Shown: positions 3,923 through 51,623 of the stretch, piece after piece
Position numbering within the stretch: position 1 is the stretch's first letter
How the letters are laid out: the number at the start of each line of letters is the position of its first letter
From: a virus
DNA: 64,000 bases
IMG/VR virus record: IMGVR_UViG_3300044811_000050
Direction: 5' to 3' (one strand)
Translations under genes and position numbers: made by a program
The notes under the pieces: generated by a model
Databases searched by the model: none
What the model saw: only the letters and a program-made list of their open reading frames with translations
What the model was told of the DNA's origin: nothing

Positions 3923-6547
3923 GTGGCCGGACGACATCGTGAGCCCAGCCGGATGGAGAACATCCAGGCAGCCGCGCGCCGGAAGATCGGCGGCGATCCA
4001 CGCCTCGGTGCTGGTGGCACGGCGGATCGCCCCTGGCACGTGGTCATCGACGACGCGGCGGACAAGTTCTTCGACTCCTTCCGGGCGCCCAGCTCCGACC
4101 AGGGCCCGCAGCGACCGGGGGAGCAGGGTGGGCGCACCGGGGAGGCCATGTTCCGCACCGTGCTGGCCGATCAGCAGGTGGCCGCGCAGGTAGCCCGGGA
4201 GACCGCCACCCAGCTCAAGACGGCGGCCAGCATGGCGGCGCAGTTCTCCGGTGAGCTGGGCCGGTTCACCACCGCGCTGAAGGCCCAGCAGGACGTGGAG
4301 CGCCAGCGGATCTCCGACGTGCTGGACCGTATCGAGCGCACCTTCGGCGGTGGCGGTAGCGGGGGCGGAACGGGCCCCTCAGCTGCCCCCAGAACGACCG
4401 GCGGCGGGGCCGGGTCTCCACGCTCGACCGGGGGCGGTTCCACGCGTCCCGCTGGCCCTGGGCGGCCAGCGCCGCCTGATATGAGCCACGCGAAGCTCAG
4501 CACCCATCAGGCGGCGGCCCACCGGATGAGTCACGGCGGGCTGCGCCGGCAGATCCTGCAACAGACCGGCGAGAGCTACCACCAGGCGTACGGCCAGGGC
4601 ACCGACCAGTCGCCGACCGTGGTCGCCATGCGCGACGCCAATGGCCAGGTCACCCACTACGAGGAGCGCGACGGCGCCGGGCAGCTGCTCAGCACGACGA
4701 GCGTGGACGATCCGCTGGCGCCCAGCATGGCCCGGCGCGCGATGCACGCGTTGACCGTCTCCCGGATGGCCGGCGCGCTCGCCTCCGGCAAGGGAGCCGG
4801 CGGCATCCTGCGGGCCGGCGCCGGGGGCATCGTCTCCGGGGTCTCCGGCTCCGGCGCGGTAGCCGGCGGGGTCGGCATGGCGGCCAAGATCGGCACCCGG
4901 GCCATCCCGTTCATCGGCACCGCGATGATGGTCGGCGACGCGGCCACCAGCGTGCTGCGCTTCGAGCAGGAGCAGCGCGCGAAGAACGCCTACTACCAGT
5001 CCATCCAGGGCGGCAGCAACGCCGCCGGCTTCGGTCAGCGGTTCCAGGAGGAAGGCTTCACCTGGGCCGAGATGTTCCGGGGCGGACTCCAGGACGACGC
5101 GGCCCGGCAGCTGTTCAAGGGCACCAGCGAGCTGGGGTTCAAGGACTCCGAGCGGTCCCGGATGCTCCAGTTCGGCTCGCAGAACTACCGCCAGATGGGG
5201 ATGGGCGTCGACCAGTCGCTGAAGGCCATCCAGATCGCCTCCTCGGGCGCCAACTCCAGCCTGGCCGGGGTGAGCAAGGCGCTGACCGACGTGACCAAGA
5301 CGGCGCGCCTGACCGGCCAGTCGGCCGACGTGATGCGGGACAAGTTCCTCGGCGTCATGGCCGTCGCCACGTCCGCCGGCTACGGCGCGGCGGCCCCCGA
5401 GGTGGCCAGCATCCTCACCCAGGCCGGGCCGGGCCGAGGCCGGGACATGGCCGGGGTGGACTACTCGGGGATGTTCTCCGAGACCCAGCAGCGGCTGCAA
5501 GCCGGTCAGATGGGGCTCAGCTACGGCCAGCTGGTCGCGCAGAACGCGAGCGGCAACGTCGCCCCGGGGCTGGAGGCGAAGGACAAGCAGCTCAAGTCGG
5601 CGGTGCAGAACACGCTCAGCCCCGCCGCGAAACGGATGATGGACGAAAAGATCAAAGCGGCTGGTGGCATCGAGGCGGTGCAGAACAATCCGGGACTGCG
5701 CCGGCAGATCGCCATCGACGTGATGAACGACCCGCGCTCGGGCATGGACCCCGGCATCATCAAGGCGATGGCCGGGGTCTATGGCGTCGACCTGGGTGAA
5801 GACCCGATGGCGGCCGGTGAGTGGGCGGTTGACCAGTACTCCGGCGGCGGCGCGATGGGCCCCAAGGCCAAGGCGGACGAGGCCGCCAAGCAGCAGCGGG
5901 ACATGGTCGACACCGATCGCCCCTGGGACGGCAGCTGGGGCCAGAGCAAGTTCGTCGGGGACAACAAGGCCAGCCAACTGTCCAAGGTCGACGTGTTCGG
6001 CTGGTTCACCGGCGAGGAGAAGAACAAGGACAAGGCCGTCCAGGCCTACGCGGACCGCCAGGGCAGCACCGGCAAGGTGGACCCCGCCATCGAGGCGATG
6101 ATCACCCAGTTGGGCGGCATGTCCGAGGTCGGCATCGAGGTGCAGACCAAAGACGGCCCGAAGGTGGTCAGCCAGTCCGACGCGATCAAGTACTACTCCG
6201 ATCAGGTCGCCAGCGGCCAGGCCACCATCGTGGGCGGCCCGGCCGACATCTCCGGCCGCAAGCTCGGCGAGGTCACCCAGACCACCGAGGGCAACTACCA
6301 GGGCGAATCCTCGGTCGGCAAGTCGGCCCAGGGCGACGCCTTCAGCGAGAAGGATTGGCGCAAAGATCATCCCTCCGGGACCGCCGCCGACGACACCGGC
6401 GGCAGCGGCAAGGTCACCATCGAGTTGTCCGACGAAGCCAAGCGGCTGTTCAAGATCGGCACCGTGTCCGGCAACGTCACCAACGGCCAGGTGGAAGCCG
6501 GCGCCGGGGCCGGCGTACCGCCCGCGCTTAGCCCGGGGCTGCGCTGA
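3923..6547 (+). CDS. tape measure protein
   Basis: 874 aa, Ala/Gly-rich, predicted helical; follows the frameshifted chaperones; GGAGG RBS. Confidence 0.75.
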   Translation: MAGRHREPSRMENIQAAARRKIGGDPRLGAGGTADRPWHVVIDDAADKFFDSFRAPSSDQGPQRPGEQGGRTGEAMFRTVLADQQVAAQVARETATQLKTAASMAAQFSGELGRFTTALKAQQDVERQRISDVLDRIERTFGGGGSGGGTGPSAAPRTTGGGAGSPRSTGGGSTRPAGPGRPAPPDMSHAKLSTHQAAAHRMSHGGLRRQILQQTGESYHQAYGQGTDQSPTVVAMRDANGQVTHYEERDGAGQLLSTTSVDDPLAPSMARRAMHALTVSRMAGALASGKGAGGILRAGAGGIVSGVSGSGAVAGGVGMAAKIGTRAIPFIGTAMMVGDAATSVLRFEQEQRAKNAYYQSIQGGSNAAGFGQRFQEEGFTWAEMFRGGLQDDAARQLFKGTSELGFKDSERSRMLQFGSQNYRQMGMGVDQSLKAIQIASSGANSSLAGVSKALTDVTKTARLTGQSADVMRDKFLGVMAVATSAGYGAAAPEVASILTQAGPGRGRDMAGVDYSGMFSETQQRLQAGQMGLSYGQLVAQNASGNVAPGLEAKDKQLKSAVQNTLSPAAKRMMDEKIKAAGGIEAVQNNPGLRRQIAIDVMNDPRSGMDPGIIKAMAGVYGVDLGEDPMAAGEWAVDQYSGGGAMGPKAKADEAAKQQRDMVDTDRPWDGSWGQSKFVGDNKASQLSKVDVFGWFTGEEKNKDKAVQAYADRQGSTGKVDPAIEAMITQLGGMSEVGIEVQTKDGPKVVSQSDAIKYYSDQVASGQATIVGGPADISGRKLGEVTQTTEGNYQGESSVGKSAQGDAFSEKDWRKDHPSGTAADDTGGSGKVTIELSDEAKRLFKIGTVSGNVTNGQVEAGAGAGVPPALSPGLR

Positions 6548-48735: not shown

Positions 48736-49358
48736 AGACCCTGGATGACTTCGCCCCCGGTGCCGCGCCGACCCGTAGGCGGGCCAAGGCCAAGCCGGAG
48801 TGGCGCCCGCCGACGTTGGCCGACCTGTTCGTCTGCCGGGTGCTGGCATTTGACCCGTCGTTGAGCAGCACCGGCTTCGTGGACATGGAGTTCACCGGCA
48901 CCGAGCTGTTCGTGCACCACGGGGAGACGTTCACCGGCCAGATCCAGCCAAGCCTGACTGGCTGGGCAAAGGACTTCCATGCCGCTGAGGACCTGCGCCG
49001 GCAGTTCTATGACCGGTTGTCCCGCTACCAGGGGGTGGATGTGTCCGTGGTGCACGAGGCGCCCCCGTTGGGCGGCGGCAAGCTGGCTTCCCCCGAGTCG
49101 GCGATCCAGGCTTCGCTGATGCTGCGGGTGGCGGCCCACGATCTGGGGATGGCCGTGTTGCCGATGGTGCGCACCCAGGACCACAAGCGCCTCACGGTGA
49201 ACCAGGCGAACGCGAAGAAGCAGGACTACCACCGGCTGCTCAAGCCGCTCCTGGAGGAGCTGAGCCCCGGCTGCCTGTCGATCATTACCAACGAACACCA
49301 GCGGGACGCGGCCGGGGTCGGGCTTGCCGTCATGCTCAGAGGGAGGGTGGACCGGTGA
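48732..49358 (+). CDS. ruvC: RuvC-like resolvase
   Basis: LAFDPSLSSTG, VHEAP, AKK and HQRDA motifs. Confidence 0.8.
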   Translation: MKTLDDFAPGAAPTRRRAKAKPEWRPPTLADLFVCRVLAFDPSLSSTGFVDMEFTGTELFVHHGETFTGQIQPSLTGWAKDFHAAEDLRRQFYDRLSRYQGVDVSVVHEAPPLGGGKLASPESAIQASLMLRVAAHDLGMAVLPMVRTQDHKRLTVNQANAKKQDYHRLLKPLLEELSPGCLSIITNEHQRDAAGVGLAVMLRGRVDR

Positions 49359-50032
49359 ACGTGCGGGCCAGCGGCAAGACCGCTGATGAGGAGGCGCTCG
49401 ACGAGATCCGCAAGGACGTCGACAAGCCAGCCGAGACCGAACTGCCCGAGGAGCGCGAGCGCAGGTTCCGGTTTCCCGGCTTCTCCCGGATGCGCACCGA
49501 CTGGTACGGCGAGGACGCCATGACGATGACCAGGGTGCACACCACCGTGGACAACGTCATCAATGATCAGTTCAAGGACCTGCTGGCCATCCGCCAGGAG
49601 CTGTACGACCTGGTGCGCCAGCCGGAGATGTTCCAGGGCGCGCCGCGCCGGGACGTCTACGGCTGGATCGTCTGGGCGCGCGACGAGGACGGCAACTACC
49701 AGGAGGACTGGAGTCGTCTCGGCCACAAGGAGCAGGAACGGTTCCTGTTCTTGATCACTACCCGGCTGTTCGAGTGGAAGGAGCGCGAAGACAGGCTGTG
49801 GGCCGAGTCGATGATGGCCAAGACGCAATGGGAGGAGGCATTCTCCACCGGCTGGCAGGCCACCGAGGGGGCTCGCCCCACCGAGGGCGACAAGACCGCC
49901 AATGGGCGCTTGACCAGCCAGGAAGAGCGCTACTTCGCCATCTTCCAGACCTACCTATCCCGCCGAGGGGAATCCCTCGTGGAGGGGATGAAAATGTTGG
50001 CCCAAAGGATAAAAGACGTGCACACGGCATGA
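49355..50032 (+). CDS. hypothetical helical protein (possible recombination mediator)
   Basis: GTGA overlap, GC3 bias; function inferred from context only. Confidence 0.6.
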   Translation: MNVRASGKTADEEALDEIRKDVDKPAETELPEERERRFRFPGFSRMRTDWYGEDAMTMTRVHTTVDNVINDQFKDLLAIRQELYDLVRQPEMFQGAPRRDVYGWIVWARDEDGNYQEDWSRLGHKEQERFLFLITTRLFEWKEREDRLWAESMMAKTQWEEAFSTGWQATEGARPTEGDKTANGRLTSQEERYFAIFQTYLSRRGESLVEGMKMLAQRIKDVHTA

Positions 50033-50592
50033 TCAGGAAGCCTCCCCACCCTTTGATCAACGAGGTCCGTGACGGAAAGATCATCTGCGTTCGCTGCGAG
50101 GAGTGGAAGCTACCGGAGGAGTTCTCCGCATCTCCCAGGATGAAGCGAGGATTGCACTCCTGGTGCACGAGCTGCCAGACGGGGTCTCAGCAGACCAGGG
50201 TGGCGGACCCGGTGGTGCGCGAGAACATCAACTCTCGTCGGCGGGAGACCTACGATGCTGAGATGCGCCGCGCCTACCGCGAGGAGCGCTACGAGACGAT
50301 CCGGCTGATCGAGCGTCGGTATCACCTGAAGAGCAAGTACGGGATGACGCCGGAAGAGTATGACTTGATGGTGGCTGAACAGGAGGGCCGCTGTCGTATC
50401 TGCAAAGACGAGGTCGACCTGCTTTACGTCGACCATTGTCACACCACCCTAGTTCGGCGTGGTGGGCTCTGCGACGGCTGCAACTTCGGCCTGGGGCACT
50501 TCAAGGACGATCCTGCTCGGCTGCGCGCGGCAGCCGATTACTTGGAGGAGTTCCAGTTGGCTCAGCGCATCAAGGATGTGCACACCGCGTAA
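50029..50592 (+). mobile_element. free-standing endonuclease VII-family (HNH) homing endonuclease gene
   Basis: CxxC..CxxC, LKSKYGMT.EEY..Q.GRC.IC..VDHCH..RGGLC..CN.GLG.F.DD; flanked by a duplicated LAQRIKDVHTA coding sequence. Confidence 0.85.
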
Positions 50593-50885
50593 CCCTTACC
50601 ATAGTGTCGAATCGTTATCTAAGAGGGGGCCCGCCTTGCCGGGGTGACCACCTCATGTAATCGTGACCTCTTAGAGCCGGGAATGTGCTCGCCCCACCTA
50701 CTGGGGTTTCGGACCTACGGCCAGGGAACCGGGTGTGCATGGTCTGAGGTGATTGACACCATTCCCCTCTGGCGACCCCGAGCCGTCCTGTTGACGCCGG
50801 TCGCTCACGGTTCTCTCCGCTCCCCGTTGCGGATCCCCCGCTCGATCGTTGGACCTCCCATGCTCCCCCGCATCTTCGCTGGAGC

Positions 50886-51623
50886 GTGCGGGTGACCGCC
50901 GTTCCGGCCAGCGATCGGATCTCGGAACTCCGAGACCTGTTCCGGTACCTGTCCGAGTTTCGGGCCTGCCACGAGCTGACCGGCCTGGAAGACATCACCA
51001 CCCCGTACGGCAACACCTGGTCGTTGTGGGACCTGGAGTACCTCTACCGGGCCGCCTGCGAGCGGCTCACCATGCGCCAGCAGCAGGCCATCACGCTGTG
51101 CCTGATCCACGGCATCAAGGAGTCCGACGCCGCCGAGCTGATGGGTGTCTCCCGGTCCAACCCGGTGATGATGTACGCCTCGCTGGGCATCCAGCGGCTG
51201 CTCGACATGATCGACTATGGCGAGCTGGACCGCTTCAACAAGCCCCGGCTGCGACCCGAGGACGCCAGTCGCCGCCGCGAGATAATGATCAAGGAACTGG
51301 CGCAGATCATCACGTCCAAGATCATTGAGATCAACGGCTGCTGGCTGTTCCCCAACCGGTTCTCCCGCCCGCCCAGGGTGCTGCTGCGCGCCCCGCAGAC
51401 CAGCACCGGCTACATCCTGGTCTCCCCGATGCAGATCCTCTGGCAGGACCAGATCGGTCCGGTACCCCCGGGCTGCCGGGTCGAGCACCAGATCGCCATC
51501 CCGGCGGTCTCCATCGCGTGCGTGAACCCCATCCACGGTGAGCTGATCATGTCTGCCCAGCGCAAGGCCTGGCTCCAGTCGCTCGCCAAGCAGTACATCC
51601 GATCAAGAGAGGTGTCGGCATGA
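50886..51623 (+). CDS. sigma-70 region 4-like regulator fused to a degenerate HNH domain
   Basis: LTMRQQQAITLCLIHGIKESDAAELMGVS (HTH) plus GCWLF..GPVPPG..EH..CVNPIH; true start may be GTG 50892. Confidence 0.7.
   Translation: MRVTAVPASDRISELRDLFRYLSEFRACHELTGLEDITTPYGNTWSLWDLEYLYRAACERLTMRQQQAITLCLIHGIKESDAAELMGVSRSNPVMMYASLGIQRLLDMIDYGELDRFNKPRLRPEDASRRREIMIKELAQIITSKIIEINGCWLFPNRFSRPPRVLLRAPQTSTGYILVSPMQILWQDQIGPVPPGCRVEHQIAIPAVSIACVNPIHGELIMSAQRKAWLQSLAKQYIRSREVSA

Follow-up and report, generated by a model that had tools for sequence, protein, structure and literature searches.

In a 64,000-nucleotide (nt) stretch of viral DNA (IMG/VR record IMGVR_UViG_3300044811_000050; referred to as the window and numbered from its first base), we found that the last 11 codons of a conserved gene are encoded twice, once at the gene's own end and once, in a different spelling, at the end of an overlapping open reading frame (ORF) for an Endonuclease VII-type nuclease. 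We judge it probable, at roughly 85%, that this nuclease is a free-standing homing endonuclease of the DHHRN family that invaded the coding sequence (CDS) of the gene, hereafter the host gene, and carried with it a replacement for the gene end that it displaced. The central evidence is a pair of nearly identical phage loci, one with and one without the nuclease, which fix the insertion point and allow the two gene ends to be compared with an uninterrupted one.

A gene end encoded twice in two spellings

The host ORF (225 amino acids (aa)) and the ORF that overlaps it (187 aa when read from its ATG) share their last 11 residues and then stop, as the first-pass annotation, made from the letters of the window alone, had reported. 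Direct reading and the ORF list agree on the coordinates of the two copies, which we call copy 1 (end of the host gene) and copy 2 (end of the nuclease ORF; Table 1). Aligning them also bore out the report that 8 of the 11 codons differ, all silently, through nine nucleotide differences. The host stop and the nuclease start overlap as ATGA (50029–50032), and the nuclease is read one base out of frame with the host gene, a stop codon lying between the two. A search of the six frames of the 64-kb window for 9-residue peptides that recur on one strand within 4 kb found this repeat, LAQRIKDVHTA, and no other. Silent changes make up 23 of the 99 single-base changes possible in copy 2; nine silent differences would arise by unconstrained drift with a probability of about 2 × 10−6, and the peptide was kept in 0 of 300,000 simulations.

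The two copies also differ in how ordinary their codons are. Copy 1 uses ATA, AGG, AAA, CAA, and GCA, which across the window account for 1.2% of Ile, 4.1% of Arg, 8.8% of Lys, 10% of Gln, and 3.2% of Ala codons, respectively. Ranked for codon typicality among 1924 eleven-codon stretches from the window's genes, copy 1 falls at the 0.4th percentile and copy 2 at the 32nd. The rare codons that the first-pass annotation had noticed in copy 1, next to ordinary usage in copy 2, are therefore real, whereas the ~45 nt upstream of copy 1, to which it had extended the observation, are only mildly atypical (about 4th–6th percentile).

Table 1 Features of the window at the duplicated gene end
Feature	Position	Strand	Description
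Host gene	49355..50032	+	225 aa, conserved hypothetical (phrog_2769); intact via copy 1
Copy 1	49997..50032	+	Re-spelled last 11 codons and TGA, read as element-borne; working end of the host gene
Inserted cassette	49997..50556	+	Net 560 bp: re-spelled tail, overlapped start, nuclease CDS without stop; missing exactly in L048
Endonuclease VII-type (DHHRN, beta-beta-alpha-metal) homing endonuclease ORF	50029..50592	+	187 aa; ATGA overlap with host stop
Four-Cys CxxC...CxxC segment, nuclease N-terminus	50086..50175	+	Residues 20–23 and 46–49; kept in L038, L039, and L049
Copy 2	50557..50592	+	Last 11 codons and TAA, read as the displaced native end; C-terminal extension and stop of the nuclease
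Conserved intergenic region	50593..50885	+	Homologous in all empty and filled loci, right after the tail stop

A near-isogenic pair with and without the cassette

We refer to related loci that hold the nuclease at this position as filled and to those that lack it as empty. Two of them, L048 (empty, from JGI) and L039 (filled, from Logan), encode identical host proteins and belong to nearly the same phage. Left of the junction they differ by 1 mismatch in 1528 nt and right of the cassette by 2 mismatches in about 840 nt; the cassette is a presence/absence polymorphism at one exact site, between flanks that are about 99.9% identical. The net insertion in L039 is 560 bp; it separates codon 214 (CGG) from codon 215, 11 codons ahead of the stop.

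At the gene end itself, the L048 tail differs from copy 1 of L039 by 10 mismatches within 25 nt, all of them silent and including switches between Ser AGC and TCT and between Arg AGG and CGA, and the stop codon differs as well. The same tail is identical to copy 2 of L039 at 35 of 36 bases, the sole difference being CTG/CTC in the first codon. Because the empty tail equals copy 2, while copy 1 has diverged beside near-identical flanks, copy 1 is best read as foreign and copy 2 as native. At the level of aligned sequence, the pair shows directly that the upstream copy came with the nuclease and that the downstream copy is the displaced original, and for this pair the first-pass proposal that the element supplies a re-spelled tail and leaves the original one downstream is confirmed. 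The sequence across the insertion point of the empty allele is not restored at either junction of the filled one.

Filled and empty relatives share one insertion point

A homologous nuclease occupies the same codon in four loci (the window, L038, L039, and L049), which come from different samples and pipelines (the window, JGI 3300062856, Logan SRR30535977, and JGI 3300048999); L049 was traced through P0017, a fragment of the L038 host protein. Its presence is sporadic, at 4 of about 48 related loci. The overlapped nuclease start seen in the window is kept as ATGA or GTGA in 4/4 filled loci, and in 3/3 of those that reach far enough the nuclease reads in frame into the second tail copy and takes its stop there, both in agreement with the first-pass annotation. 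Its placement of the insertion near the 3' end of the gene is likewise borne out by seven empty loci (L001, L043, L044, L045, L002, L046, and L048), in which the host stop is followed directly by DNA homologous to the window from 50593 onward. In L003, where a nuclease is located elsewhere, the host stop also lies directly before such DNA. In the window and L039 the two copies are spaced at 560 nt, in L038 at 551 nt. In the last of these, copy 2 (L038:2176–2221) is without three codons (9 nt), in a pattern that resembles a deletion between two CAG repeats; the tail that the nuclease borrows evidently tolerates shortening.

The difference in spelling recurs among these loci. Copy 1 falls at the 0.4th, 0.5th, and 10th percentiles of codon typicality across three filled loci, compared with the 32nd–58th for copy 2 and the 57th–94th for ordinary empty tails. 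In copy 1 of all four filled loci, Gln is spelled CAA, Ile is spelled ATA or ATT and never ATC, and the stop is TGA, where ordinary empty alleles mostly carry CAG and ATC. Compared with the ordinary tails of L045, L002, and L003 (the last empty at this site), copy 2 of the window is identical at 30–31 of 36 bases and copy 1 at 24–26. The copies 1 of the window and L038 are identical at 31 of 36 bases and the corresponding gene bodies at 72.6% (binomial P about 0.045), a likeness that would follow if copy 1 moves together with the nuclease. The two codons immediately left of the insertion are also altered in the window and L038, near-invariant Glu-Arg having become Lys-Met or Asn-Arg.

The inserted ORF carries the complete Endonuclease VII family motif

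The nuclease ORF matches the Pfam family Endonuclease_7 (PF02945) with an E value of 8.4 × 10−21 and 74.1 bits (cut-off 23.6), and its residues 13–175 match phrog_2633, 'endonuclease VII', at 1.8 × 10−37. The DHHRN motif, CX2-4C...D-H-x-H...R...CX2C-N, combines zinc ligands with the catalytic D, H, H, and N (PMC6083498). In the window the family motif is complete, with CRIC at residues 122–125, DHCH at 135–138, RR at 143–144, and CDGC at 148–151 followed by N152. The four-Cys segment near the N-terminus presumably forms a zinc-ribbon DNA-binding part. At third codon positions the nuclease has a GC fraction (GC3) of 0.80, against 0.90–0.92 in the neighbouring genes. Gene callers had placed the nuclease starts wrongly, giving 130, 131, and 106 aa where about 187 aa are expected; the conserved N-terminus begins at the overlap.

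Both profile and structure-sequence alignments, including that to the Hpy99I nuclease domain, which runs to 176, stop at residue 173–176, which is the junction. Because the alignments end where the shared residues begin, the shared 11 residues are an appendage to the nuclease fold, as would follow from a stop taken from the original tail. The nearest nuclease relative outside this context, P0124, ends at the fold boundary without a tail, so the borrowed tail probably serves the nuclease only as a stop.

A search of positions 49900–51000 against Rfam returned no family at E up to 1. Since the nuclease frame is also shifted by one base and separated from the host frame by a stop codon, the element is neither a group I/II intron nor an intein, and the insertion without either that had been proposed at first pass stands.

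A proposed mechanism by replacement of the gene end

These observations suggest the following course of events. A 560-bp cassette would insert between codons 214 and 215 of the host gene, its 5' end replacing the displaced 11 codons and stop, so that the host protein stays unchanged with no intron or intein involved. The ATGA or GTGA at the end of the replacement holds the start of the nuclease, for which coupled translation by termination-reinitiation is probable, and the nuclease, having no stop of its own, reads through the displaced native 11 codons to theirs. The predicted target is the empty-allele sequence across the insertion point. In a mixed infection the enzyme would cleave empty alleles, and repair from the filled genome would copy the cassette in, while the re-spelled tail would render the filled allele immune. 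We infer the cleavage activity, the target, the immunity by re-spelling, and the translational coupling from sequence.

This scheme accounts for the spelling of copy 1. The left junction of a filled allele would consist of the left half-site and a re-spelled right half, and the right junction of nuclease sequence and the right half-site; because each junction retains one half-site only, the filled allele would contain no intact site. A replacement in native spelling would re-create the empty site at the left junction, which provides a rationale for the re-spelling and for where it is heaviest: between L039 and L048, the silent changes cluster most tightly in the five codons that follow the insertion point. 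The rare codons of copy 1 would follow as well, because the target holds common codons and differing from them forces rare ones. Two other roles for copy 1 were considered and rejected: AAGGA, which might act as a new Shine-Dalgarno sequence for the nuclease, is also present in native tails, ~12 nt from the start, and no sigma-70 consensus was found that would make copy 1 a new promoter.

Evidence from the window's own clade and alternative explanations

Several observations, some from the closest relatives of the window, weigh against this reading. For the window there is no near-isogenic empty partner: the closest nuclease-free relatives are L001 (82% aa) and L043 (71%). At this spot (L001:5100–5162 and L043:660–722), the tail codons of L001 lie at the 0.1st percentile of typicality, the 11 codons just upstream of the L043 tail lie at the 0.4th, and both loci share AGG/CGA, xTA/GTG, and AAA GAC with copy 1 of the window. 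The first-pass annotation had expected nuclease-free relatives to end in copy-2-like codons, which is true of L048, and the codons of L001 and L043 are strongly atypical; it had also named copy-1 codons in empty alleles as the finding that would count against it, and superficially these two loci fit that description, L001 with rare codons in its tail and L043 with rare codons just upstream of its tail. Because these two loci are atypical too, rare codons by themselves cannot tell the window's native copy from the foreign one, and a copy-1-like tail could be the native state in its clade. Nevertheless, we infer that the window's own copy 2 is the native tail. L001 and L043 are possibly scars left after deletion of the nuclease and copy 2, or escape alleles that arose under nuclease pressure. 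Third-position identity between the window and L001 is 50% in the tail, against 81% over the 264 nt that precede it, and by this measure the tail region is a local hotspot under either reading. The use of Asp GAT or GAC is inconsistent between the copies across three loci, which points to exchange between copies or to variable conversion tracts. The nucleases are 66–74% identical to one another at the aa level, about as diverged as the host genes (65–68%), making long vertical co-inheritance with repeated loss possible. Finally, copy 2 still encodes the peptide in all three loci, which might reflect a need of the nuclease for it.

The same clade supplies what can be said for a reversed polarity, at least in the window, in which copy 1 is native and the nuclease and copy 2 came from a donor phage and inserted after the host stop. 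Copy 1 of the window resembles the L001 tail at 28 of 36 bases (copy 2 at 24), with AGG, xTA, and AAA GAC in common, and the Asp GAT of copy 2 is seen otherwise in filled loci only. We nonetheless regard this polarity as improbable: in the sole near-isogenic pair the empty tail equals copy 2 and not copy 1, copy 2 of the window is the nearer to ordinary empty alleles, CAA and a non-ATC Ile codon are common to copy 1 of all four filled loci, and copy 1 of the window is nearer to that of L038 (31/36) than to L001 (28/36), even though its gene body is far nearer to L001. The pair also bears on a target-site or tandem duplication made in place at insertion and followed by drift under purifying selection on both peptides. 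Such an origin would fit the retention of the peptide by both copies in every locus and the agreement of the variable second residue within a genome (Ala/Ala in the window, Ser/Ser in L039). However, L039 and L048 have flanks only ~0.1% apart over 2.4 kb beside a copy 1 that differs at 10 of 25 positions, which drift cannot yield, and Ser AGC to TCT has no single-step silent path, so we think this origin very improbable.

A more serious alternative, though one we still think unlikely, keeps the architecture and denies that the re-spelling confers immunity: the tail could represent a divergent donor allele, or the dissimilarity of the repeats could prevent deletion of the cassette by recombination. 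The fungal cases of Allomyces and Glomus have been read as foreign alleles acquired by horizontal transfer (PMC3630166); the rare-codon tail of L001 and the rare codons upstream in L043, both nuclease-free, could represent a donor lineage; and the 9-nt deletion between CAG repeats in L038 indicates that repeat-mediated deletion happens here. Against this, the concentration of changes in the first five codons, together with the two altered residues leftward in the window and L038, resembles a half-site footprint, and a random foreign allele should use common codons, all relatives being high-GC. An assembly artefact or chimeric contig would be conceivable in that every sequence comes from metagenome assemblies, but the same architecture is found in four of them, including the window's 157-kb contig, at sequence differences of 7–35%, and we give this explanation next to no credence. 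Invasion by a homing endonuclease that carries a replacement gene end is the reading retained below.

The host protein and its phage

Among metagenome proteins, 123 homologues match the host protein in length, and the last 11 residues are among the best conserved. Its AlphaFold2 (AF2) model (predicted local distance difference test score (pLDDT) 83) places the tail in a long C-terminal helix, residues 189–221. Superposed on T4 UvsY, the model gives a Z score of 8.4 and a root-mean-square deviation of 2.8 Å over 119 of 127 residues, nearly the whole of UvsY; a Foldseek search of the model against the PDB returned no significant match, UvsY having a probability of 0.98 but an E value of 0.75. 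The host protein may therefore be a UvsY-like recombination mediator, the score being for a helical protein a lead and not decisive. Genes in its neighbourhood include RecA-like, exonuclease, Holliday junction resolvase-like, and RuvC-like ones.

A megablast search with the region as query matched none of 50,697 phage records, and by this comparison no deposited genome is closely related to the phage. Only distant homologues of the host gene (<30% identity) were found by tblastn, in Mycobacterium, Rhodococcus, and Gordonia phages of ~135–158 kb. Viral contigs scanned with the single host protein yielded nothing; scanned with an alignment, they yielded 34 distant loci, none with the nuclease, and a metagenome scan added only 3 short loci.

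A mirror-image arrangement at the adjacent gene

In L003 (JGI Ga0604931_0002020), a related Endonuclease VII ORF (hmmsearch 9 × 10−34) occupies the 5' end of the sigma-like gene downstream, and across the arrangement (positions 4683–5245) the opening 16 codons of that gene occur in two copies. The upstream copy (4683–4730) starts the nuclease ORF and differs from the empty allele of L002 at 7 of 48 bases. The downstream copy (5198–5245) overlaps the stop of the nuclease, as ATGA, and is the beginning of the working gene. The two copies differ at 12 bases, all silently and including a Ser TCA/AGC switch, with the downstream copy being the re-spelled one. The same nuclease family thus employs 3' and 5' terminus swaps at adjacent genes. 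The called start of the L003 nuclease is 27 nt too late.

Between the two genes lies the conserved intergenic region (Table 1), ~290 nt long, whose shared blocks include CGTTATCT and a GC-rich stretch with CTTGC at its end. Window positions 50593–50885 gave no match to an Rfam family or to the sigma-70 consensus and no intrinsic terminator. If the nuclease homes as proposed, this region is the right-hand homology arm, and it is probably also the regulatory region of the downstream sigma-like gene. For that gene, called at 50886–51623, alignment with relatives suggests a start at the GTG at 50892 (VTAVPA...) and not at 50886. In L044 (6008–6684) a long downstream ORF has a faint LAGLIDADG_3 match and may be an intein or another homing endonuclease.

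Discussion

The closest parallels that we found are gene hybrids formed by mobile endonuclease ORFs (mORFs) in fungal mitochondria, described for atp6 of Allomyces macrogynus, for atp6, atp9, cox2, and nad3 of Glomus sp., for atp9 of Rhizopus oryzae, and for cox2 of Mortierella verticillata (PMC3630166). There, as here, a gene core is followed by an inserted C-terminal copy, an endonuclease ORF, and a displaced native C-terminal copy; the native copy is almost identical to that of an element-free close relative, the inserted copy is diverged in DNA and about 100% conserved in protein, and ORF and native remnant sometimes share a reading frame (PMC3630166). In contrast, the present element sits in a high-GC tailed phage and not in a mitochondrion, its Endonuclease VII/DHHRN nuclease is of a kind not reported for these mORFs in that paper, and its replacement covers only 11 codons, is purely synonymous, has an ATGA/GTGA overlap as nuclease start, and always goes with a borrowed native stop. 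The element works like an mORF without being a member by descent, and it resides in a phage-like contig.

Among phage enzymes, F-CphI of cyanophage S-PM2, also of the DHHRN family, is similarly free-standing, with CxxC...DHxH...R...CxxC-N in a C-terminal catalytic module and a separate N-terminal part; the account of it available to us in PMC6083498 includes no terminus duplication, and kinship with the nuclease described here is at family level only (Pfam/PHROG). The 'intronless homing' of the T4 seg and mob genes, as reviewed in PMC2988022, likewise involves neither intron nor intein: these are promoter-less cassettes on host transcripts that spread by double-strand-break repair with co-conversion, and their conserved targets include recombination genes (SegA cuts uvsX). 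They differ in being intergenic and in cutting at sites that lie hundreds to thousands of bp away from where they insert, and the review mentions no duplicated gene end, whereas the insertion reported here lies 11 codons inside a CDS and is repaired by a re-spelled terminus that the element carries. We found no phage description of a terminus-carrying endonuclease layout in the open-access literature.

The arrangement shows how a free-standing homing endonuclease can occupy an essential-looking CDS without splicing machinery, and the filled and empty contigs fix its insertion point to the nucleotide and give a concrete predicted target. Duplicated gene ends of this type can mislead annotation and recombination analyses, and patches of rare codons at gene ends may serve as footprints of nuclease targets. 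The mirror case in L003 suggests that the strategy may be common in phages. We hold only tentatively, as somewhat less probable than its opposite, that terminus-swap homing is a general, two-directional phage strategy in which cassettes insert a few codons from either end of a conserved gene, and the silently re-spelled ends that they bring act as immunity and, after loss of the nuclease, may persist as resistant scars, as perhaps in L001 and L043. If that is true, rare-codon patches at gene ends would point to targets past or present, and such cassettes would cause synonymous changes to come in bursts, and alleles to turn over, where conserved phage genes begin and end.

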